From: a virus
Direction: 5' to 3' (one strand)
DNA length: 45,912 nt
IMG/VR virus record: IMGVR_UViG_3300045988_103468
Span: 1 to 45,912 of that record
The position numbers and the translations under genes are program-made. Below the pieces are notes generated by a model. It saw nothing but the letters and a program-made list of their open reading frames with translations. It ran no database searches and was not told the origin of the DNA. Of the stretch, positions 167 to 42,353 are shown piece by piece. Each line of letters starts with the position of its first letter. Positions within the stretch are counted from its first letter, which is position 1.

Positions 167-190
167 TTATTGAAGTAATATATGGTTGTT

Positions 191-198
191 TATATTTG
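191..198 (+). promoter_or_regulatory. Bacteroidota-type -7 promoter box (TATATTTG) for int
   Basis: Perfect match to TAnnTTTG, 23 nt upstream of ATG 221. Confidence 0.5.
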
Positions 199-220
199 CA
201 TCCGTGCAAATATAACAATT

Positions 221-1552
221 ATGGCGACAATTTACTATTCACTCTCTGCCAAGGAAAATACATGCGGTTTACACGAGGTGCTGATTCGGTTTACTCACGG
301 ACGCCTTAACCAGCGTGCCAAGACTGGTATTTTCGTGCTGCCTGAATATTGGAGCGCCAAGACACAATCGGTTTCTGTTCCCCGTTACAGGATGATGTCT
401 CCTGCCCAACAAGAGATCGTCGAACAGGCAAACGAGGCACATTCTAAAATCTCGGCATTGACATCTTTTGTCATGCAATCGTTCATAGAGGCAGGAGCAG
501 GGAAGGTTAGCTTGCCTCCGAGTTGGCTCAGGGATGTTATTACGCCTTATTCTGTAGGATTGTCGCAAGACAGGGATATATGGGCACATTTTGAAAGTTA
601 CGTATCCAAGAAGGGGTTTTCTGAGCGCCGTAAGATGGCATTCAATGTTCTTATGAGGGCTCTCAAGCGCTACGAGTTGTACAAAAGGATTTTCGACCGC
701 ACCTTCACCCTTTCGCTGGGGATGCTAACGCCCGAGGTATTGGATGACTTTGAGGACTTTTATCGCCGGGAGCACGATATATGCGAGGAATATCCGCATA
801 TCTATGCTTTGGTGCAGGATTCGAGGATACCACACCAGCGTGGCCACAATACGGTTGTCAGCAAGATGATTCTCTTGCGGGCTTTCCTGAATTGGGCCGC
901 AAACAATGACCTGATCCAAACTAATCCTTTCCGGAAGAAGGAGATAAAACAAGCTGTATATGGTTCCCCGATCTATATCACAATCGCCGAGCGGAACAAG
1001 CTATACCATACAAACCTATCCAGGCATCAACGACTGGCGGTACAGCGGGATATATTCGTATTCCAATGTCTCATAGGGTGTCGCGTGGGGGATTTGATAG
1101 CCTTGAAACGGAGCAACGTAGTAAAAGGTGCTGTTGAGTATATCCCGCGCAAAACGAAGGAAGGCCATCCGGTGACGGTGCGTGTCCCGTTGAACAATCT
1201 TGCAAAGGAGATAATCAATAAATACGCATCCCCTGACAATGCACTACTGCTCCCCTTTATTTCGGAGCAAAAATATAACGAGGCAATTAAAAAATGCTTC
1301 CTTGCTGCCGGATTGAAACGCATGGTAAGTGTACTCAACCCCGTCACCAGGGAGCCTGAGCAAAAACCGCTCTACCAAGTTGCGTCATCCCATATGGCGC
1401 GTCGTACTTTTATCGGGAATCTGTATAAGCAGGTCAAAGACCCTAACCTTGTGGGATCTTTGTCGGGGCATACCGAAGGCAGCAAAGCATTTGCCCGCTA
1501 CCGCGACATAGACGAGGAGATGAAAACCGACCTGGTGAAACTTCTGGAATAA
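221..1552 (+). CDS. int: Tyrosine recombinase / phage integrase
   Basis: ORF 182-1552. Start moved to ATG 221 (MATIYYSL...) because the -7 box lies inside the longer ORF. Catalytic pattern visible: GCRVGDL (Arg), SSHMARRTF (HxxR), GHTEGSKAFARY (His..Tyr). Adjacent to attL. Confidence 0.9.
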   Translation: MATIYYSLSAKENTCGLHEVLIRFTHGRLNQRAKTGIFVLPEYWSAKTQSVSVPRYRMMSPAQQEIVEQANEAHSKISALTSFVMQSFIEAGAGKVSLPPSWLRDVITPYSVGLSQDRDIWAHFESYVSKKGFSERRKMAFNVLMRALKRYELYKRIFDRTFTLSLGMLTPEVLDDFEDFYRREHDICEEYPHIYALVQDSRIPHQRGHNTVVSKMILLRAFLNWAANNDLIQTNPFRKKEIKQAVYGSPIYITIAERNKLYHTNLSRHQRLAVQRDIFVFQCLIGCRVGDLIALKRSNVVKGAVEYIPRKTKEGHPVTVRVPLNNLAKEIINKYASPDNALLLPFISEQKYNEAIKKCFLAAGLKRMVSVLNPVTREPEQKPLYQVASSHMARRTFIGNLYKQVKDPNLVGSLSGHTEGSKAFARYRDIDEEMKTDLVKLLE

Positions 1553-28031: not shown

Positions 28032-28460
28032 TCACAGGTTTTCCGTTAATTCATCTTGCTTTTTTTCGACTGCACCCATTCTTCGAGAGAGGACTTCACC
28101 ATCACCCTTCTGAGTTAATCGTTCAATGATTGCAGTTTGGTTCGCCACTACTGCAGTCACTTTTGCGAGCTGCTCTTTCAGGGTGTTGATGTAGTCCTGT
28201 GTAAGTGGATCCATCTCCTGAATTTTTGTTGAGTTAGTAATAGGGTTATCTTTTGGGGTTTCCCCGGTTTGGTTTTGAATGATATATCTTGATATTATAT
28301 CGCCATATTTAACCTTTAGCCTTTCTATATGCTCCTCTTTTATTTCTCGTTTCCCATTCATCATTGCTGATATCTGCGATTGAGCTACACCTATAACTTC
28401 GCTTAAATCTTGTTGTTTAAGCTGCATGTCAAAGGCAAACTTCTTAATATCTAATAACAT
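28032..28460 (-). CDS. CI-like repressor (XRE-family HTH)
   Basis: ORF 28032-28916 trimmed to MLLDIKKFAFDMQLKQQDLSEVIGVAQSQISAMMNGKREI (XRE HTH), with a C-terminal coiled-coil-like part. Divergent from the early operon. Confidence 0.8.
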   Translation of the reverse strand: MLLDIKKFAFDMQLKQQDLSEVIGVAQSQISAMMNGKREIKEEHIERLKVKYGDIISRYIIQNQTGETPKDNPITNSTKIQEMDPLTQDYINTLKEQLAKVTAVVANQTAIIERLTQKGDGEVLSRRMGAVEKKQDELTENL

Positions 28461-28510
28461 ATGGAAATTGACAATATTATAATAATTATTTATACAAAAT
28501 ATCTTTATAA

Positions 28511-28529
28511 ATCTTGATAATATCAAGAT
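28511..28529. promoter_or_regulatory. Operator: perfect palindrome ATCTTGATA-A-TATCAAGAT
   Basis: 9-bp arms, flanked by direct AAAATATCT repeats (28496-28504 and 28530-28538). Immediately upstream of the early -7 box. Confidence 0.6.
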
Positions 28530-28537
28530 AAAATATC

Positions 28538-28545
28538 TATATTTG
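28538..28545 (+). promoter_or_regulatory. Early rightward promoter -7 box (TATATTTG)
   Basis: Perfect TAnnTTTG, about 115 nt upstream of ATG 28662. Confidence 0.5.
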
Positions 28546-28661
28546 CAATGTGAAACCCACAAAGCTGATACAAATATACGATTTAAGATGAAAAACGCAA
28601 GCGTGGGGACTGAATATTTGACGATTGTACCTTTTTGAAGGTAATAAAAACGGACAACGCG

Positions 28662-28904
28662 ATGAAAGCAACTTACGACAAATCGAAGATCATGAAGAAC
28701 GCCTGGTACCTTAAAAAGGTACAGCCGGGCAAGAGTTTGGGGGATTGCCTGCGCAAGGCTTGGCGCAACGAGAAGTTGGCGATGCTGACCGCGAAGATCG
28801 AGAACCGCCCGACGGAGCAGCCGAAGGCCACGGAGTACCGCCCCGAACTGCTGAAAGTGCCGACAGGTTTCTATGGTGTCCGAGGAATGTACTATGGTGA
28901 CTAA
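28662..28904 (+). CDS. First early-operon protein (Cro/antirepressor position), function unknown
   Basis: ORF 28635-28904 begins at TTG. The first ATG is at 28662 (MKATYDKSKIMKNAWYLKK...). Confidence 0.55.
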   Translation: MKATYDKSKIMKNAWYLKKVQPGKSLGDCLRKAWRNEKLAMLTAKIENRPTEQPKATEYRPELLKVPTGFYGVRGMYYGD

Positions 28905-28917
28905 AGCACGATGCAAT

Positions 28918-29837: not shown

Positions 29838-30237
29838 ACACAAAATATAACCAACCATGAAAACAATTTATCTCTGGGTTTCAGGCAAAGGCTGGACACC
29901 CTTTCAGTACAATGAACTTTCTGAATTAGCCGCCGAATTTGAGGCGCGCAATATCAAACTGGGCGACGGGTGCGAACTGGGCGACGGGTGCAAACTGGGC
30001 GACGGGTGCGAACTGGGCGACGGGTGCGATGTTCCGAAATCGCTATTTATCAGCGCATCTCGTCATACAGTATCCTATTGGGGTGAGGATGTTATTCAAA
30101 TAGGCTGCAAACGCTACACCATTTCCGAGTGGCAGAAGCATTTCCGAAAAATTGGCGAGGCCGAAGGCTATAGTCCCGAGCAGATGGAGGAATACAAAGG
30201 GTATATAGACCTGATCGCCACCATGCACAAGACGTGG
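29834..30237 (+). repeat. 404-bp direct repeat, copy A
   Basis: Aligned by hand to 41938-42341 (offset 12104) with 8 mismatches. Starts at the stop codon of the upstream gene. Confidence 0.9.
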
Positions 30238-30264
30238 AAGGTTGAGAAGGTAAAGGACAAATAA
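29857..30264 (+). CDS. Hypothetical protein with four LGDGC(E/K/D) hexapeptide repeats, paralogue A
   Basis: 135 aa, near-identical to 41961-42353 except for the last ~10 residues. Confidence 0.75.
   Translation: MKTIYLWVSGKGWTPFQYNELSELAAEFEARNIKLGDGCELGDGCKLGDGCELGDGCDVPKSLFISASRHTVSYWGEDVIQIGCKRYTISEWQKHFRKIGEAEGYSPEQMEEYKGYIDLIATMHKTWKVEKVKDK
29959..30030 (+). repeat. 4 x 18-bp tandem repeat (CTGGGCGACGGGTGCGAA-like)
   Basis: Encodes LGDGCE LGDGCK LGDGCE LGDGCD. The same array occurs at 42063-42134. Confidence 0.9.
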
Positions 30265-31429: not shown

Positions 31430-31501
31430 TGAGCTATGGTGTAATGGTTAACACACCGCCCTTTGGAGGCGGTACTCCCGGTTCGAATCCGGGTAGCTCA
31501 A
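31430..31501 (+). tRNA. tRNA-Gln (anticodon UUG)
   Basis: Hand-folded 72-nt cloverleaf. Acceptor TGAGCTA/TAGCTCA (U1-A72). D-arm GTGT-AATGGTTA-ACAC. Anticodon arm CCGCC-CTTTGGA-GGCGG. T-arm CCCGG-TTCGAAT-CCGGG. CCA is not encoded. Confidence 0.9.
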
Positions 31502-31694
31502 CGGGGTTCTAACCCTAATGTTGTGAGTTTGATCGGGCGCTTGGGCGTCTGTCACAACGGAAGCTGACAGAGGGTATATCCCTCGACAATCCGAGGCTGC
31601 GTGAAGGAAGTAGCAAGGCCGAGGCGGGCTAAGCCCACGAAACGGGAGATAAAGAACGCAAATCGGCGGCGCGAAGCACAGTAACGCCGCCACC

Positions 31695-31910: not shown

Positions 31911-33131
31911 ATGAATTACGGATTACCTTATAAGGGTTCTAAGAATAGTATTGCGAAATGGGTTATTTCGAATCTTCCCGCGTCGCATACGTTCGTGGAT
32001 TTGTTCGCCGGAGGATGTGCGGTAACTCACGCTGCCATATTGTCTGGTAAATTCGGACGTTTCATTGCAAACGATATTACGGAATATCCCCAAGTCTTCC
32101 GTGATGCCATCGATGGGAAATACCGGAATGAATGTCGATGGATCAGTCGGGAGGATTTCCTCCGTCTCAAAGATGACGACCCCTACGTGCGTCTTTGCTG
32201 GAGCTTTGGGAACGATATGAATACATATATGTATGCTCCGGAGGTTGAGCGGTTCAAAAAACACATGCACGCGATATTTTCCGCGGGAACGCCCACGAGC
32301 GCGCGGTTGGCATGGAAAGGATTTGTCCGGGAATTTGCAAAAGTCCGTGATAAAATAGGAGAGCTGACGCAAAAGGTGCTGAAGTTGTGCGCAGCGTGCG
32401 ACGTGGCACCTCAATACAATGCGGACGGCACATTGAATACAAAGGCGATACATACAGATGTTTTTCGGGTTAAATCAGCGTATTTGCGAAAATATTTACA
32501 GAACGCCCTGAAATTATCCGGTCTTACGCAAAAAGATGTCGACCGACGCCTTGGGAATTATATGGGTAGGCATTATTTTAGCGAATCTCAATGGATGTTG
32601 CCATCCTCTGAACAATACGAGAAGTTGCAAGAAATTTTACCGGCGTTAACTATTCCGTGGGCGCCCTTAAACGAAAGTCTGCAAAGTCTGGAAAGACTGG
32701 AAAGTCTGGAAAGTCTGGAAAGTCTGCAAAGTCTGCAAAGTCTGGAAAGACTGGAAAGACTGCAAAGTCTGGAAAGACTGGAAAGTCTGCAAAGTCTGGA
32801 AAGACTGAAACTGTCCCGAAAGGATTACAGCGATGTTGCTATACCGCCGGGCGCGACGGTATACTGCGACCCGCCGTATGCTAACACGTCGGGGTATATC
32901 GACGATTTCGACCATGAACGATTTTATAGATGGCTGCGCAGCATGGAATTCCCGGTGTTCGTTTCGGAATATTCCATGCCGGACGACTTTATATGCTTTG
33001 CGAGTATTGACAAAGCATGCACCTATTCATCATCAAAAACGATAAAACGCGTAGAAAAGATGTTCGTACACGAGCGGTGGGCGGATGCTGTGAGGCGTCC
33101 GGATGATAATGTTCAGGGGCGGCTGTTCTAA
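31911..33131 (+). CDS. dam: Dam-like (D12-class) N6-adenine DNA methyltransferase with an inserted tripeptide-repeat segment
   Basis: N-terminal LPYKGSKNSIAKW and FVDLFAGGCAV (motif I). C-terminal VYCDPPYANTSGY (motif IV). 406 aa, longer than typical Dam because of an HTH-like segment plus 15 tripeptide repeats between the motifs. Confidence 0.8.
   Translation: MNYGLPYKGSKNSIAKWVISNLPASHTFVDLFAGGCAVTHAAILSGKFGRFIANDITEYPQVFRDAIDGKYRNECRWISREDFLRLKDDDPYVRLCWSFGNDMNTYMYAPEVERFKKHMHAIFSAGTPTSARLAWKGFVREFAKVRDKIGELTQKVLKLCAACDVAPQYNADGTLNTKAIHTDVFRVKSAYLRKYLQNALKLSGLTQKDVDRRLGNYMGRHYFSESQWMLPSSEQYEKLQEILPALTIPWAPLNESLQSLERLESLESLESLQSLQSLERLERLQSLERLESLQSLERLKLSRKDYSDVAIPPGATVYCDPPYANTSGYIDDFDHERFYRWLRSMEFPVFVSEYSMPDDFICFASIDKACTYSSSKTIKRVEKMFVHERWADAVRRPDDNVQGRLF
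32676..32810 (+). repeat. 15 x 9-bp in-frame tandem repeat (AGTCTGGAA / AGACTGGAA / AGTCTGCAA variants)
   Basis: Counted unit by unit. Encodes SLQ SLE RLE SLE SLE SLQ SLQ SLE RLE RLQ SLE RLE SLQ SLE RLK. Confidence 0.95.
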
Positions 33132-37148: not shown

Positions 37149-37516
37149 CAGATTTAGAACGGGAATACGACCGTGTTTTCAGCCTTTTTATACGTCATCG
37201 AGACTGTCCGGGTGGGCGAGGTTTCTGCATCACCTGCGGGGCGCCCATAGCGCCTGAAACATGCGATTGCGGGCACTATATAGACCGAGCTCACAGGTCT
37301 ACGAGATGGGACGAAAGGAATTGTCACGCCCAATGCAGGGTTTGCAACAGGCATTCTGCTGGTCGCATTGGAGTTTACCGCCAAGTACTGATCCGAAAAT
37401 ACGGACTTGCAGTCGTTGAAGAACTTGAACGCAGTAAGCACAGCGTATTCAAAATGTCGAGGTCGGAGATGTCCGATAAGATCAATTATTACAAACGATT
37501 AATTCGCAATGTGTAA
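37145..37516 (+). CDS. ninG: NinG/Rap-like recombination endonuclease
   Basis: CITCG..CDCGHYIDRAHRSTRWDERNCHAQCRVCN pattern, typical of lambda NinG. Confidence 0.7.
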   Translation: MTDLEREYDRVFSLFIRHRDCPGGRGFCITCGAPIAPETCDCGHYIDRAHRSTRWDERNCHAQCRVCNRHSAGRIGVYRQVLIRKYGLAVVEELERSKHSVFKMSRSEMSDKINYYKRLIRNV

Positions 37517-38396
37517 CACTTCAAATAACAGTTGGATTAAGATGTACCGCAGCTTCCTCGATTGGGAGTGGTATCCGGATACGAACTGCGTACGGCTGGC
37601 ATTGCATTTCATTTTGAAGGCAAATTACCGGGCCAAGAAGTGGAAGGGTTTAATCATTGACCGCGGACAATTGGTAACCAGCAGAGGACAGCTGTCCGAA
37701 GAGACAGGACTTTCGGAGATGCAAATACGCACCGCAATAGACAAGCTGGATAATTGCGGGTTTATAACCAAGTCGGGAACACGCAAATATACTATCATAA
37801 CTGTCTGTAATTATGACTTATACCAACAAGCACAGGATGGTTTTGATAATGGTTGTCAACCAACAGATAACCAACAAACAACCAGCAAACAACCAACAGA
37901 TAACCAACAAATAACCACAACTAAAGAATATAAGAAAGAAAGAATAGAAGAATATACACACACACTGGTAGATACTAAAAAGGGGGTTGTAGGGGGAAAA
38001 GAGACGGAGGCCGTGGAACTCATAGAATGGATCGCCACGAACGCGCCATGTATTGCTTCGATGCCCGAGCCCATAACTGCGGGACAGGCCGTGTGGCTGT
38101 TGCAGGACTACAACGTGAAAGATATTCGCCGATTGATAGCCACCATGCAAAGCAAGCAGGCATACCTCAAACACACGAATGCCTATACGGCTTTTGTCAG
38201 TTACGCAAACCTCGACAAGGCGCTTAAAGATGGCCGGCCGCCAAGTGTGCAATCTGGGAAAAAGTATTATACACGGGATGAAGCAATGGCCTATATTCGA
38301 TTCCGTCGTTTGGGCGGCTCTCTTAAAGATAATTTCACTCTTGAGCGTGTGAATGGGCAGCATTTGTGGTGCTTGAAAGCCCCAGTTAACCTTTAA
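37509..38396 (+). CDS. Putative replication initiator / replisome organiser (winged-helix N-terminal domain)
   Basis: WIKMYRSFLDWEWYPDTN...RGQLVTSRGQLSEETGLSEMQIRTAIDKL, a central repeat/low-complexity linker and a C-terminal domain. Position follows the recombination genes. Confidence 0.6.
   Translation: MCNTSNNSWIKMYRSFLDWEWYPDTNCVRLALHFILKANYRAKKWKGLIIDRGQLVTSRGQLSEETGLSEMQIRTAIDKLDNCGFITKSGTRKYTIITVCNYDLYQQAQDGFDNGCQPTDNQQTTSKQPTDNQQITTTKEYKKERIEEYTHTLVDTKKGVVGGKETEAVELIEWIATNAPCIASMPEPITAGQAVWLLQDYNVKDIRRLIATMQSKQAYLKHTNAYTAFVSYANLDKALKDGRPPSVQSGKKYYTRDEAMAYIRFRRLGGSLKDNFTLERVNGQHLWCLKAPVNL
37857..37922 (+). repeat. 2 x 33-bp tandem repeat inside the initiator gene, followed by an AT/purine-rich tract (37921-37966)
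   Basis: CAACCAACAGATAACCAACAA begins at 37857 and again at 37890. Encodes QPTDNQQTTSK QPTDNQQITT. Confidence 0.85.
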
Positions 38397-38407
38397 CGAA
38401 CGATAAA

Positions 38408-38470
38408 ATGAAAGTCATAGTCACCTTTTCGGGTGGGAAAGACAGCTGCATGAGTTATTACGGATTATGA
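38408..38470 (+). pseudogene. 20-codon in-frame internal-deletion ghost of the PAPS-reductase-like gene
   Basis: MKVIVTFSGGKDS|CMSYYGL* joins the first 13 codons and the last ~7 codons of 40569-41465. The flanking 65 nt (38383-38447) match 40544-40608 with 3 mismatches. Confidence 0.7.
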
Positions 38471-39627
38471 CTATGAAATTACGAGTATTCACAAGTTTTT
38501 CCGGCTATGACAGTCAGTTGATGGCTCTTCGGGACATCGGCGCGGACTACGAGTGCGTGGGCTGGTCGGAGATTGACAAATGGGCGATTAAGGCTCACGA
38601 TGCAGTATTCCCGGAGCTGGCAGACCGAAATTACGGCGACATCACGAAAATCGATTGGGACGTCGTTTCGGACTTCGATCTGTTCACCTACTCGTTTCCG
38701 TGTACCGACATCAGCAGCGCCGGAGAGCAGAAGGGTTTCGAAGAAGATTCGGGCACCCGTTCATCCCTGTTATGGGAATGCCGTCGGCCGATCGCGGCCA
38801 AGCATCCTAAATTCCTGCTGATGGAGAATGTGAAAGCCCTCATATCGGAGAAATACCGTCCGCTGTTTCTCAAATGGGAATCGTGGCTTCGCTCGCTCGG
38901 TTATGTCAATTATACGGAAATACTCAACGCCAAAGATTACGGCGTCCCGCAGAACCGGGAACGTGTATTTATGCTCTCCATTCTTAACGGCTGCTGGTAT
39001 GAATTCCCGCATCCGGTCAGGCTGGAAAAGCGGCTGAAAGACGTATTGGAATTGGAGGTAGACGAGAAGTATTATCTGAGCGAAACAATGCTGAAATTTC
39101 TGCAAAAGCAGACAGGCCGAAATGAACCGTTTAAGCCTGCAAAAATAGCCGATCTTAATGGTGTTGCCATGACGATAAATGCAAGAGCACACAAAATAAG
39201 CAAACAGGATAATTATGTGATGCAGATCGGCGCAACGAAGCAAACGGACTGGAACCGACAGCAATACCGGGTATACGATCCGACTGGCACCAGCCCGACG
39301 ATAACGACGAAATCGGGCAGCGGACTTGAACCGAAAATCCTGATGCGGGGACGCGGCTTCAACAAAGGCGGCGAAGCGGATCTTCCCGGAACGATTACAG
39401 GCAGCGCGTGGGAACAAAACAATCTGCTGGACTATGCCGGCTGCATCCGCCGCCTTACGCCCCGCGAGTGTTTGCGGCTGATGGATGTTTCGGATAGTGA
39501 CATTAACAAGATACAAGCTGCGGGAATCAGCGATACACAGCAGTACAAGCTGGCCGGAAACAGTATCGTAAAGGCCCCGATGATGGGGATATTTGAAAAC
39601 ATGTTGAGATACGGATTATGCGAATAG
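38467..39627 (+). CDS. DNA (cytosine-5)-methyltransferase
   Basis: Motif I FSGYDS, motif IV FPCTDIS, motif VI LMENVKAL, motif VIII QNRERVF, motif X AGNSI. Confidence 0.9.
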   Translation: MTMKLRVFTSFSGYDSQLMALRDIGADYECVGWSEIDKWAIKAHDAVFPELADRNYGDITKIDWDVVSDFDLFTYSFPCTDISSAGEQKGFEEDSGTRSSLLWECRRPIAAKHPKFLLMENVKALISEKYRPLFLKWESWLRSLGYVNYTEILNAKDYGVPQNRERVFMLSILNGCWYEFPHPVRLEKRLKDVLELEVDEKYYLSETMLKFLQKQTGRNEPFKPAKIADLNGVAMTINARAHKISKQDNYVMQIGATKQTDWNRQQYRVYDPTGTSPTITTKSGSGLEPKILMRGRGFNKGGEADLPGTITGSAWEQNNLLDYAGCIRRLTPRECLRLMDVSDSDINKIQAAGISDTQQYKLAGNSIVKAPMMGIFENMLRYGLCE

Positions 39628-40496
39628 GTTTGGTTGACATAGACGGTCACCACTTCCCGAACCTCGCGCTGATGAAACTGTCAACTTGGCATAAAGCGCA
39701 GGGTGATTCGGTAGAGTTCGCCGACCCGATGTTCGGTCGCTACGACCGGGTTTATATGTCGAAGGTTTTCACTTTCACGCCCGATTGTCCGGACATCTAC
39801 CATTGCGAGGTGATCCGGGGCGGGACGGGATTCCGGGACTATACGACGGTATTGCCCGGTGAGATCGAGCATATTTGCCCGGATTATTCGCTGTACGGAG
39901 TAAATGAAGCCTACGGATTCCTTACCCGCGGCTGTCCGAACCGCTGCCCGTGGTGCATTGTTCCGCACAAAGAAGGAGCCATCCGGCCCGCGTCTCCGCT
40001 ACGGGAGTTTATCGGCGACAAGCGCCGGGCTGTATTGCTCGATAACAACGTGCTGGCATCGGACTTTGGGCTGGAACAGATCGAGGAAATAATCCGCATG
40101 GGCATCGCGGTTGATTTCAACCAAGGGCTGGATGCCCGGAGGGCGTGCGATGATCCCTACATCCTCGACCTGCTGGCGCGGGTGAAGTGGATTCAGCATA
40201 TTCGGTTCGCCTGCGACCGGATGTCCCAACTGGAGGCGGTTACAAAGTGTGTCAAAGAGTTGGGACGCCGAGGTATCAAGCCATATCGCATTTTCGTCTA
40301 CTGCCTGATACAAGATGTCGATGAATCATTGGAGCGGATCAACGCCCTGCGTAAATTGAAAGTCTGCCCGTTTGCCCAGCCTTACCGGGATTTCGATAAT
40401 AACATTGAGCCGACGAAGGAGCAAAAACGGCTGGCGCGTTGGTGTAACCATAAGGCTATTTTCAAGAGTGTTGAATTCAAAAACTACAAATTATGA
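39618..40496 (+). CDS. Radical SAM enzyme, substrate unknown
   Basis: TRGCPNRCPWC is CX3CX2C. 292 aa. The ATG is embedded in the 16-nt junction and overlaps the MTase end by 10 nt. Confidence 0.75.
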   Translation: MRIGLVDIDGHHFPNLALMKLSTWHKAQGDSVEFADPMFGRYDRVYMSKVFTFTPDCPDIYHCEVIRGGTGFRDYTTVLPGEIEHICPDYSLYGVNEAYGFLTRGCPNRCPWCIVPHKEGAIRPASPLREFIGDKRRAVLLDNNVLASDFGLEQIEEIIRMGIAVDFNQGLDARRACDDPYILDLLARVKWIQHIRFACDRMSQLEAVTKCVKELGRRGIKPYRIFVYCLIQDVDESLERINALRKLKVCPFAQPYRDFDNNIEPTKEQKRLARWCNHKAIFKSVEFKNYKL

Positions 40497-40568
40497 CAGA
40501 CCAAGTAACGAGCATCGAGCAGTCGAAGAAGCCCCAGTCCCCTCAGTTAACCTTTAACGAACGATAAA

Positions 40569-41465
40569 ATGAAAGTCATAATCACCTTTTCGGGTGGCAA
40601 GGACAGCCTTGCATCGCTTCTTTGGACGCGCGAACATATCACCAAGAACTTTACGACCGTGTTTTGCGACACGGGGTGGGAGCATCCGTTGACCTACGAG
40701 TACATCAACCGGATCGCGGATAAGCTCCACTTGGATTTGGTGACGCTCAAGTCGAAGAAATACGACGGGATGGTCGATCTTGCCCGGCAGAAAAAGCGTT
40801 GGCCCTCGACGCGGGCGCGGTTCTGCACGCAGGAATTGAAGACGAAGCCCTGTATCGACTACGTGCTGGACGAGGTGCAGGACAATATGCTGATGATACA
40901 GGGCATCCGGGCAGCAGAATCGGCCAGCCGGGCGAAGATGTCGGCGCAATGTACGTACTTCAAGTACTATTTCGAGCCTTACGGTTACGACAAAAACGGC
41001 AAGCCGAAAAAGCACACTTATCGGGGCAAGGAGGTACGGGCATTCCGGGAGAAGTTCGCCGACGATTTGCTTCGGCCCGTGTTTGACTGGTCGGCGCAGC
41101 AGGTAATCGACTACATCCTCGACGCAGGATTGGAGCCGAACCCGCTCTACAAAATGGGCTACAAACGTGTCGGCTGCTGGCCGTGCGTGATGGCGAATCA
41201 GCGGGACATCCTCAATATTGCCCAGCAGGCCCCGGAGCGGATAGACTACATTGCCAAGATTGAGCAGGAATTACAATGCGGCGACCGGTTGCGTTCAGAA
41301 TTTTTCGGCCCGGACAAAATACCTGCCCACGCAATCACCAGCGGAGAGAAATATCCGACGATTCATGATGTCGTGCGCTACGTCCAATGGCAGAATGCGA
41401 CGGGCAGCCTATTCGACGACGATACAGCGACCAGTTGCATGAGCTTTTACGGATTATGCGAATGA
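40569..41465 (+). CDS. PP-loop ATPase of the PAPS-reductase-like family
   Basis: N-terminal MKVIITFSGGKDS (SGGxDS PP-loop) and later RVGCWPC. 298 aa. Confidence 0.8.
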   Translation: MKVIITFSGGKDSLASLLWTREHITKNFTTVFCDTGWEHPLTYEYINRIADKLHLDLVTLKSKKYDGMVDLARQKKRWPSTRARFCTQELKTKPCIDYVLDEVQDNMLMIQGIRAAESASRAKMSAQCTYFKYYFEPYGYDKNGKPKKHTYRGKEVRAFREKFADDLLRPVFDWSAQQVIDYILDAGLEPNPLYKMGYKRVGCWPCVMANQRDILNIAQQAPERIDYIAKIEQELQCGDRLRSEFFGPDKIPAHAITSGEKYPTIHDVVRYVQWQNATGSLFDDDTATSCMSFYGLCE

Positions 41466-41941
41466 ATATGAAAACGGACAAACTGATCTTGGATGCCTGC
41501 TGCGGCCCACGTATGATGTGGTTCGACAAGCGGAACCCGCAGGCTGTGTTCATGGATATTCGGGACGAAGAGCATATACTCTGCGATGGCCGGAGTTTAG
41601 AGGTGCATCCGGATGTAATCGGAGACTTTCGACGTATACCGTTCGAGGATGCAACATTTCGGCTTGTTGTGTTCGATCCTCCACACCTTGTCCGTCTTGG
41701 CGACAATAGCTACATGGCGCACAAATACGGCAGATTGTTCCCCACATGGGAAACCGATCTAAAGCAGGGGTTCGACGAATGTATGCGAGTATTGAAACCG
41801 GAAGGGGTTTTAATCTTCAAGTGGTGCGAAGAGCAAATACCCGCAAGCCGAATCATCGAAATTTTCGGAGTGGAGCCGCTGTTCGGCCACAAGAGCGGCA
41901 AGAACTCCAAAACGCAGTGGATGTGTTTTATGAAAAATTAA
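41456..41941 (+). CDS. SAM-dependent methyltransferase, probably DNA N6-adenine/N4-cytosine type (DPPH motif)
   Basis: LILDACCGPRMMW (motif I-like) and LVVFDPPHL (motif IV-like). The start is either ATG 41456 or ATG 41462 (ATGA overlap). Confidence 0.65.
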   Translation: MRMNMKTDKLILDACCGPRMMWFDKRNPQAVFMDIRDEEHILCDGRSLEVHPDVIGDFRRIPFEDATFRLVVFDPPHLVRLGDNSYMAHKYGRLFPTWETDLKQGFDECMRVLKPEGVLIFKWCEEQIPASRIIEIFGVEPLFGHKSGKNSKTQWMCFMKN

Positions 41942-42341
41942 ACACAAAAGATAACCAACCATGAAAACACTTTATCTCTGGGTTTCAGACAAAGGCTGGA
42001 CACCCTTTCAGTACAATGAACTTTCTGAATTATCCCCCGAATTTGAGGCGCGCAATATCAAACTGGGCGACGGGTGCGAACTGGGCGACGGGTGCAAACT
42101 GGGCGACGGGTGCGAACTGGGCGACGGGTGCGATGTTCCGAAATCGCTATTTATCAGCGCATCTCGTCATACAGTATCCTATTGGGGTGAGGATGTTATT
42201 CAAATAGGCTGCAAACGCTACACCATTTCCGAGTGGCAGAAGCATTTCCGAAAAATTGGCGAGGCCGAAGGCTATAGTCCCGAGCAGATGGAGGAATACA
42301 AAGGGTATATAGACCTGATCGCTGCAATGCACAAGACGTGG
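41938..42341 (+). repeat. 404-bp direct repeat, copy B
   Basis: See 29834-30237. Confidence 0.9.
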
Positions 42342-42353
42342 GCGTTACACTAA
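41961..42353 (+). CDS. Hypothetical protein with LGDGC hexapeptide repeats, paralogue B
   Basis: 130 aa, near-identical to 29857-30264. Confidence 0.75.
   Translation: MKTLYLWVSDKGWTPFQYNELSELSPEFEARNIKLGDGCELGDGCKLGDGCELGDGCDVPKSLFISASRHTVSYWGEDVIQIGCKRYTISEWQKHFRKIGEAEGYSPEQMEEYKGYIDLIAAMHKTWALH

Follow-up and report, generated by a model that had tools for sequence, protein, structure and literature searches.

The stretch of viral DNA analysed here, hereafter the window, is IMG/VR record IMGVR_UViG_3300045988_103468 (positions 1 to 45,912), a temperate phage or prophage belonging to a Bacteroidales siphovirus of the gut. Directly 3' of its DnaD-like replication gene lie four open reading frames (ORFs), all on the + strand, which encode a C5-cytosine DNA methyltransferase (MTase), a radical S-adenosylmethionine (SAM) protein (rSAM), a PP-loop protein similar to 3'-phosphoadenosine 5'-phosphosulfate (PAPS) reductases (PAPS-like) and a small SAM-dependent DNA MTase (Table 1). 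A reading made from the sequence alone had described these ORFs, together with their diagnostic motifs, as a possible multi-step DNA-modification module. The coordinates and family matches reported here bear out the gene content, apart from one start codon, and support the view that these are genes of a DNA-modification or counter-defence type that fit no described pathway. The four genes, however, do not form a single conserved module. The region is, on balance, probably a variable accessory slot of the phage early operon, filled with exchangeable DNA-modification and anti-restriction cassettes that include a facultative rSAM-PAPS pair. A mosaic of exchangeable cassettes is a known kind of region; the rSAM-PAPS unit within it is undescribed, and is widespread.

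Table 1. Features of the window, with the variable island listed before the surrounding phage genes.
Feature	Position (nt)	Strand	Basis or remark
Orphan C5-cytosine DNA MTase, 386 aa	38467-39627	+	PF00145 E=5e-56, TIGR00675 E=3e-55
Radical-SAM protein, 292 aa	39618-40496	+	phrog_9298 ('radical SAM domain protein') E=4.5e-90
PAPS-reductase-like PP-loop protein, 298 aa	40569-41465	+	PF01507 E=1.7e-29
Small SAM-dependent DNA MTase, 159-161 aa	41456/41462-41941	+	phrog_954 E=5.7e-79
Internally deleted PAPS-reductase gene, 20-codon mini-ORF (MKVIVTFSGGKDS joined to CMSYYGL-stop)	38408-38470	+	sequence read
Shared cassette junction ACGGATTATGCGAATAG	39611-39627	+	upstream ...GLCE-stop end and downstream ATG CGA ('MR') start
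Non-functional remnant in the rSAM-PAPS gap	40493-40567	+	5' end of a 143-aa gene and duplicated DnaD-like end/spacer
DnaD-like replication/helicase-loader gene	37509-38396	+	phrog_2514 E=8e-27; left border of variable island
D12-class (Dam-like) N6-adenine MTase	31911-33131	+	PF02086 E=8e-15, phrog_56 E=1.7e-32; outside island
Rightward early operon: D12 Dam-like MTase, Erf, SSB, NinG/Rap, DnaD-like loader		+	
Repressor-like helix-turn-helix gene	28032-28916	-	
Structural arm: small and large terminase, portal, major head protein, tape measure		-	
Integrase	182-1552		

The first ORF is a canonical C5-MTase that scores well above the relevant cut-offs (190.9 bits against 22 for PF00145; 188 against 100.65 for TIGR00675). 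All five motifs ascribed to it were located: I, FSGYD (residue 11); IV, PCTDIS (residue 78); VI, ENV (residue 120); VIII, QNRER (residue 162); and X, GNSI (residue 364). Its nearest solved structures are the M.MpeI-like enzymes 8c56 and 4dkj (E~4e-32) and M.HhaI, while its C-terminus is a PAPS-type tail, RYGLCE-stop. The fourth ORF is likewise an MTase with the DPPH motif attributed to it, matching the PADLOC models MTase_II PDLC03288 (E=3.9e-67) and orphan MTase PDLC03730 (E=3e-51); motif I, LDACCG, precedes motif IV, DPPH (nt 41675-41686; residues 72-75 counted from 41462). The protein, at ~160 residues, is too short for a separate target-recognition domain, and no PF05869 Dam match was found in the Pfam scan. 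The start previously given for this ORF, 41387, had to be revised, as it belongs to an out-of-frame run through the 3' end of the PAPS gene; the true start is 41456 or 41462. With the D12 MTase of the early operon (55.6 bits against a PF02086 cut-off of 22; DPPY motif IV at residue 320), the phage does carry three DNA MTases. From what is known of these families, the C5, D12 and small MTases would methylate replicating phage DNA and so enable the progeny to escape host restriction.

The rSAM protein comprises an N-terminal Rossmann-like domain (residues 1 to ~95) followed by a predicted partial-barrel rSAM core, which contains a single CX3CXWC cluster motif, CPNRCPWC, at residues 106-113 (nt 39933-39956). 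Two of the cysteines, C106 and C110, do not vary among 29 aligned homologues, C113 is retained in at least 90% of them and W112 is an invariant aromatic residue; no second conserved Cys cluster was found. PF04055 aligned to the cluster loop alone and scored 20.8 bits, under the gathering threshold of 29.5 bits, and there was no match in NCBIfam or PADLOC; it is the conserved cluster motif and the phrog_9298 match that place the protein, as a predicted member below the Pfam threshold, in the radical SAM superfamily. In the AlphaFold2 model (pLDDT 89.4) the core alternates strand and helix. A Foldseek search of this model against the PDB returned nothing at E<=1e-3, with QueE (E=0.026), HemN (E=0.045) and generic TIM barrels as weak matches, and in the viral database BFVD it found proteins annotated as rSAM, B12-binding-like or COG1032 (E 1e-3 to 1e-2) as well as two unnamed proteins at about 1e-9. 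A profile of the family, when compared with the sequences of solved structures, aligned only with the cluster loop of MiaB/RimO (E~0.04), which is uninformative on function; the loop, RGCxNxCxWCIVP, resembles MiaB GCNNFCTYCIVP. Assignment as a methylthiotransferase of the MiaB/RimO type was rejected, as residues 1-95 contain no conserved Cys and the sequence stops at residue 292 with no TRAM domain. Homology to NrdG-type activases, an origin unrelated to DNA that the sequence-only reading had considered, was not seen at family thresholds in Pfam or NCBIfam, nor was homology to QueE, and the cluster is located at residue 106, after a separate N-terminal domain.

The family consists of standalone proteins of ~290 residues, with at least 7963 matches in a database clustered at 90%, or 3103 when one representative is taken per 50%-identity cluster. 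Its members occur in anaerobes from several phyla, in Muribaculaceae (97% identical), Alistipes, Bacteroides, Prevotella and Dysgonomonadaceae and also in Oscillospiraceae, Lentisphaerae and Desulfovibrio, and genomes often contain several copies; the exact window protein is indexed in 237 assembly-collection blocks, each with at least one carrying contig. A distant homologue of 812 residues (P0152) is a fusion of rSAM with ParB_N and a ParB helix-turn-helix domain. A second, P0147 (577 residues), appears to be fused to an ABC-transporter-type ATPase and may be a gene-calling artefact; no recognisable additional domain was found in other fusions among the distant homologues.

The third ORF was confirmed as a PAPS-reductase-like PP-loop protein, with SGGKDS at residues 8-13 and a PF01507 score of 103.5 bits against a cut-off of 22.5. 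Relatives fall into three divergent subfamilies that are only ~25% identical to each other and share only the PP-loop and a Cys triad (C86, C203 and C206), which is a probable Fe-S site. The C-terminal tail, SCMSFYGLCE, contains two invariant Cys and differs from the CysH motif ECGLH; in the form SCMSxYGLCE it is invariant within the subfamily of the window protein. The AlphaFold2 model has a pLDDT of 80 and is disordered over residues 279-298. PADLOC models of SspD (5e-22), BrxP (7e-21) and DndC (6.5e-11) match the N-terminal half of the protein (residues 3-127). Several specific identities were rejected: the protein scores 31.6 bits against a cut-off of 290.4 for DndC (TIGR03183) and 16.5 bits against 22 for QueC (PF06508), and the match to SspD and BrxP is not full length, with their partners SspBC and BrxCZL (PMC12914056) absent from the window ORFs scanned.

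The order in which the four genes stand reflects how the island was put together. Only two of its junctions overlap, those of the C5-MTase with rSAM (10 nt) and of PAPS with the small MTase (ATGA with the MTase start at 41462, 10 nt with that at 41456), and thus the genes form two coupled pairs. The proposal that three of them are chained by overlapping stop and start codons holds for these two junctions and fails between rSAM and PAPS, which are 72 nt apart with gene remnants in the space between them. Upstream of the C5-MTase is the scar of an earlier PAPS gene, the 5' 39 nt of which equal the start of the full gene, including the PP-loop, while its 3' part is the PAPS tail; its stop overlaps the C5-MTase start codon (ATGA). 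This deletion scar (20-22 codons) is found in 12 other loci (L001-L007, L017, L244-L247), followed there by rSAM, C5-MTase or small MTase cassettes, and the mini-ORF may be retained as a translational-coupling leader. A boundary of ~16 nt, TACGGATTATGCGAAT(A/G), is common to otherwise unrelated gene pairs and occurs a second time in the window, at 41449-41465. It joins PAPS to rSAM (L009, L088), to C5-MTases (L090, L107, L131, L146) and to the small MTase (window, L102), and looks like a recombination linker for the exchange of cassettes at gene borders. The remnant in the rSAM-PAPS gap begins with MTDQVTSIEQSK, the 5' end of the 143-residue gene that normally follows rSAM and is intact in that position in L085 and L001-L013, and nt 40544-40568 match 38383-38407, the last bases of the DnaD-like gene and the adjoining spacer.

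These data show that cassettes swap by recombination at short conserved gene-boundary sequences, namely the PAPS 5' end, the YGLCE-stop/ATG-CGA junction and the 3' end of the DnaD-like gene with its spacer. Before these events the lineage had the order DnaD-like, PAPS, rSAM and the 143-residue gene. The window then lost the interior of its first PAPS copy and gained the C5-MTase behind the scar, and a second PAPS gene was later inserted with the small MTase cassette behind rSAM. Thus, the scars and shared junctions indicate that the island was assembled by at least two short-homology recombination events, and they illustrate clearly how cassettes are exchanged at gene borders.

To compare gene content, viral loci were fetched around rSAM relatives (80), close PAPS relatives (80) and the small MTase (24), together with 80 reference-genome loci and the contigs encoding the exact window rSAM. 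The four-gene order of the window was found at none of the ~180 loci around rSAM, PAPS or small-MTase relatives, and at none of 21 places carrying the window rSAM or four homologues. Instead, phages whose rSAM is 96-99% identical lack the C5-MTase, PAPS and small MTase genes in varying combinations, while the DnaD-like gene that borders the island is 96-99% conserved among relatives that differ in island content. Thus, rSAM follows the DnaD-like gene and the scar in L002 (rSAM 99% identical) and L007 (96%), follows the DnaD-like gene alone at five of six places with the exact window rSAM, follows a C5-MTase alone in L005, L006 and L017, and follows PAPS in L009, L088 and L268. PAPS precedes the small MTase without rSAM in L081-083, and precedes a C5-MTase in L131, L146 and L154. 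The small MTase is an independent cassette that is generally unlinked to PAPS, and was rejected as its obligate partner, since PAPS lies upstream in only 3 of the 24 small-MTase loci. It could be argued that the four genes constitute one multi-step pathway to a hypermodified base, which an MTase starts, rSAM and the PP-loop protein elaborate and the second MTase ends, as they are contiguous, co-directional and partly translationally coupled, and rSAM follows MTases in other elements too. The arrangement, however, is unique among the loci examined and is reduced to subsets in phages with near-identical rSAM, the scars record a recent union of the genes by separate events, and the 72-nt gap consists of gene debris and is no operon junction. 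We consider such a pathway, and with it the four-gene module first proposed, highly improbable.

What recurs is the pairing of rSAM with PAPS. When 160 rSAM loci were collapsed to 88 clusters at 90% identity and the immediate same-strand neighbours scanned with Pfam, PAPS_reduct was the top neighbour family (12 of 84 upstream, 2 of 81 downstream), followed by RepA_N/DUF6017 (7), C5 MTases (4+3), N6_N4 MTases (2+1), D12 MTases (2) and ArdA (2); Tad3, TraQ and TraG occurred once each. With a local hidden Markov model, a PAPS-like gene was detected within 6 kb of rSAM in 23 of the 88 clusters, on the same strand every time, and in 18 of these 23 (18/88) it was adjacent (<=300 nt), in 15 instances within 80 nt. 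The usual order is PAPS then rSAM, with codons that overlap or almost abut. If PAPS were placed at random among the ~16-18 genes that flank rSAM, adjacency this frequent would have a binomial probability of 1e-13 (p=0.11) or 2.5e-6 (p=0.3), values that overstate independence since the loci counted are related. The pairs are scattered over the rSAM tree, involve three PAPS subfamilies and are found in phages as well as conjugative elements; among the hosts are Bacteroidales, Lentisphaerae, Oscillospiraceae and Desulfovibrio. A separate set of gene calls, with precomputed Pfam assignments, also placed PAPS_reduct before rSAM in L268 and L280, with an ATGA or 10-nt overlap. A first survey, by tblastn and greedy ORF clustering, had indicated almost no PAPS linkage; with some genes mis-called and the PAPS subfamilies only ~25% identical, it was too insensitive and was revised by the profile-based scans. 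The suggestion that radical-SAM and PP-loop genes might work together is therefore supported by their co-occurrence elsewhere, as a pair and not as part of a four-gene pathway. Comparative genomics indicates that rSAM and PAPS-like probably form a facultative two-gene unit that is usually translationally coupled.

No conserved third partner was found around the 18 pairs, the neighbours being mostly ordinary phage or conjugation genes. SNF2 helicase giants lie near 6 of the 18, mostly in one termite-gut clade. In L179, L181, L185, L186 and L188, from Dysgonomonadaceae or termite-gut metagenome-assembled genomes, the pair lies directly 3' of giant ORFs (>1200-1680 residues, cut by the locus end) that are like the large polyvalent proteins of conjugative elements; the SNF2/Helicase_C domains match six scanned neighbour proteins, very likely these giant ORFs, the members not being specified by the scan. 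An SMC-like ABC ATPase of 656 residues, encoded two genes 3' of the pair in L280 (5772-7742), matches AAA_29 weakly and the SMC head at E=0.003 in a search of solved structures. It accompanies a single rSAM protein, P0118, in its three contigs (L280-L282), and may be either an NTPase partner similar to DndD or a common phage protein of the SbcC/Rad50 type. A QueD-like 6-pyruvoyl-tetrahydropterin synthase (PF01242 E=2.5e-31) near 1 of the 18 pairs was the only deazapurine hint of the survey.

Otherwise rSAM is placed directly behind a DNA MTase: a C5-MTase in the window and several relatives and, in integrative and conjugative elements of Bacteroidales (P0082, P0075), an N6_N4 MTase that it overlaps or from which 8 nt separate it. 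Genes of a DNA-modification type account for ~29% of the immediate upstream neighbours (24/84). By this guilt by association, which is no proof, the substrate of rSAM is most likely DNA or a DNA-modification intermediate rather than a metabolite. An anti-restriction trick in which rSAM depletes SAM was considered improbable for a gene coupled to MTases that themselves depend on SAM. The pair might also be supposed to modify tRNA, tuning translation or evading tRNA-targeting defences. The PP-loop fold does match the tRNA thiolases MnmA and TtuA, the rSAM cluster loop is most like that of MiaB/RimO (E=0.04) and the phage carries a tRNA-Gln gene (anticodon TTG, 31430-31502, in the early region directly 5' of the D12 MTase). 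The MiaB/RimO match, however, is confined to the loop, in a protein without the Cys triad of an auxiliary cluster or a TRAM domain, and the neighbours are DNA MTases, ArdA and ParB with no RNA enzymes among them; the source label 'tRNA methyl transferase' on a PAPS homologue (P0385) is unverified. A role in tRNA modification is thus very unlikely.

The virome literature mostly counts phage PAPS reductases as auxiliary genes of sulfur metabolism (PMC13369170; 10.64898/2026.02.18.706556), and by analogy the PAPS-like protein could be a true CysH acting in sulfate assimilation, with rSAM an unrelated moron and their adjacency the product of a shared accessory hot spot. The Foldseek check suggested by the sequence-only reading, which left rSAM without a confident PDB match, favours this for the PAPS-like protein, as its best structural matches are CysH and adenosine 5'-phosphosulfate (APS) reductases (E~1e-7), and the Cys-bearing tail is reminiscent of ECGLH. 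The models of assimilatory enzymes, however, all scored far under their cut-offs (PRK02090, 67 bits against 154; TIGR02055, 50 against 235; TIGR00434, 48 against 165), and no other sulfur-assimilation gene was present among the scanned window ORFs. In addition, the PAPS gene lies in the replication and early operon, translationally coupled to DNA MTases or rSAM, adjoins rSAM far more often than random placement would allow, and accompanies it in conjugative elements also, while a phage PAPS domain acts against Dnd experimentally (10.1101/2021.05.05.442762). Sulfate assimilation is, for these reasons, a distinctly unlikely role.

PAPS-domain proteins are the sulfur-inserting enzymes of the phosphorothioate (PT) systems Dnd, Ssp and BREX-4, in which they operate with an NTPase (DndD, SspC or BrxC) and a DNA-recognition or nicking component (PMC12914056). 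Defences of this kind are present in 7.7% of the genomes of the gut microbiome, where BREX type 4 is 2.3-fold enriched; BREX-4 is also enriched in gut Bacteroidota (PMC12914056). Solo PAPS genes in gut isolates gave no PT (PMC12914056; PMC12707154). As the sequence-only reading had stated of the expected Dnd and 7-deazaguanine partners, none of the Dnd, Ssp or BREX-4 NTPases, any SMC-like/ABC NTPase, DndE, a desulfurase, QueD/FolE or DpdA was found in any window ORF scanned. The phage genes are therefore no member of Dnd, Ssp or BREX-4, and the 7-deazaguanine pathway, with no QueE- or QueC-level match either, was likewise rejected. The absence of an NTPase speaks for a further explanation, counter-defence by inhibition. 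The PAPS-like protein, with or without rSAM, would here be a decoy or dominant-negative form of host DndC, SspD or BrxP, or an enzyme that removes or masks PT-dependent signals. The protein resembles the N-terminal half of these enzymes, PT systems are present in gut Bacteroidota (PMC12914056) and a phage PAPS-MTase fusion has an anti-Dnd phenotype (10.1101/2021.05.05.442762). Strict conservation of the PP-loop and Cys triad, however, implies catalysis and not mimicry, and inhibition leaves the coupled rSAM enzyme unexplained; we regard this explanation as unlikely.

A more specific proposal for the facultative pair is that rSAM, of the phrog_9298 family, and the PAPS-like protein constitute an undescribed two-enzyme system for nucleic-acid modification in phages and conjugative elements of anaerobes. 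We offer this only tentatively, as a rather doubtful extension of the accessory-slot interpretation. Speculatively, the PP-loop/Fe-S protein would activate the substrate or carry sulfur using ATP, like its relatives DndC, SspD and BrxP, rSAM would provide 5'-deoxyadenosyl-radical chemistry, and the pair would put a protective mark on the DNA of the element or neutralise PT-based defences (Dnd/Ssp/BREX-4). The system could, for instance, use radical chemistry to place a sulfur-containing mark (phosphorothioate or thio-base) on DNA by a minimal route that needs no NTPase, or it could act on methylated bases as the oxygen-independent equivalent of oxidative base hypermodification. Several observations weigh against this proposal and against the facultative pair in general. 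In 65 of the 88 rSAM clusters there is no PAPS gene within 6 kb, and several near-identical phages have a deleted PAPS gene beside an intact rSAM, which indicates that rSAM is independent of the adjacent PAPS and makes the partnership facultative. The phage lacks the NTPase (DndD/SspC/BrxC) needed by all known phosphorothioation systems (PMC12914056), and the closest solved structures of the PAPS-like protein are assimilatory CysH/APS reductases and no DNA enzymes. Known sulfur-inserting rSAM enzymes have an auxiliary cluster; the single conserved Cys cluster of rSAM thus argues against direct sulfur insertion by this protein.

Reports of phage PAPS reductases from gut and environmental viromes are common, and a single experiment suggests that they act in counter-defence (10.1101/2021.05.05.442762). 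The coupling of phage PAPS genes to DNA methylases, and their recurrent coupling to a very abundant rSAM family, speaks for a function in DNA modification or counter-defence. If the two-enzyme proposal is correct, the system would shield the element from restriction or PT-sensing defences; a DNA mark, should the pair make one, would represent a new modification chemistry in the human gut mobilome and bear on how phages evade PT-based immunity.

The wider genome contains a further pair of repeated sequences. Two paralogous genes (29857-30264 and 41961-42353; 95% identical, 122/129 residues), which encode proteins of 130-135 residues with GDGCELGDGCKL hexapeptide-like repeats, form direct repeats of ~390 bp, 12 kb apart, that flank most of the early region, so that recombination between them could delete it. 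Cys-rich proteins with CSFGEE repeats, kin of these paralogues, are encoded by the second commonest gene 3' of PAPS in relatives. Megablast of the region against GenBank phages returned only an unannotated human faecal contig, MT835567.1, with 35% of the region covered.

No description of a PAPS-reductase and rSAM pair in mobile elements was found in the searchable literature, and the closest comparisons are with systems that share one part of the island. Similar to DndC, SspD and BrxP, the window PAPS-like protein has the PP-loop ATP-pyrophosphatase fold and conserved Cys compatible with a 4Fe-4S cluster. It differs from them in that it matches over the N-terminal ~125 residues only and lacks the DUF4007 fusion that is a trait of BrxP, while the phage encodes no DndD/SspC/BrxC, DndE/SspB or desulfurase, the partner being a protein of the rSAM superfamily instead. 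A radical-SAM-type reaction has been claimed for DndC (PMC10853773), which is itself unrelated to the rSAM superfamily; in light of this claim the pairing of a PP-loop protein with a true rSAM is chemically suggestive, and unproven. A PAPS domain is likewise coupled to a small DNA MTase in the vibriophage PAPS-domain-Dam fusion for which Piel et al. (10.1101/2021.05.05.442762) reported anti-Dnd activity. In the window these are separate, translationally coupled genes in a phage of a Bacteroidales host, with a putative activity, the MTase is of another family (phrog_954) and the coupling is not general, as seen from the 3 of 24 loci above; in the vibriophage no rSAM partner was reported.

Among solved structures, assimilatory PAPS/APS reductases (CysH; 1SUR, 2O8V, 2GOY) match the PAPS-like protein best (TM-score ~0.6 on target) and, like CysH and APS reductases, the window protein has a flexible Cys-bearing C-terminal tail, with a GCxxC that resembles APS reductases. 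In contrast with CysH, to which it is 16-20% identical, it has a C-terminal extension of ~80 residues and stands in a DNA-modification context. The rSAM protein shares with COG1032-type rSAM proteins an N-terminal Rossmann-like domain ahead of the core, but is far shorter (292 residues) than these or MiaB/RimO and has no N-terminal Cys triad, TRAM or SPASM/twitch domain. The island as a whole most resembles the orphan-MTase and anti-restriction cassettes of temperate phage early regions and conjugative leading regions, with which it shares several MTase classes (C5, D12 and small N6/N4-type), gene-by-gene mosaicism at conserved boundaries and, in homologous loci, ArdA and Tad3 as neighbours; to this repertoire the window island adds an rSAM and a PAPS-reductase-like protein.

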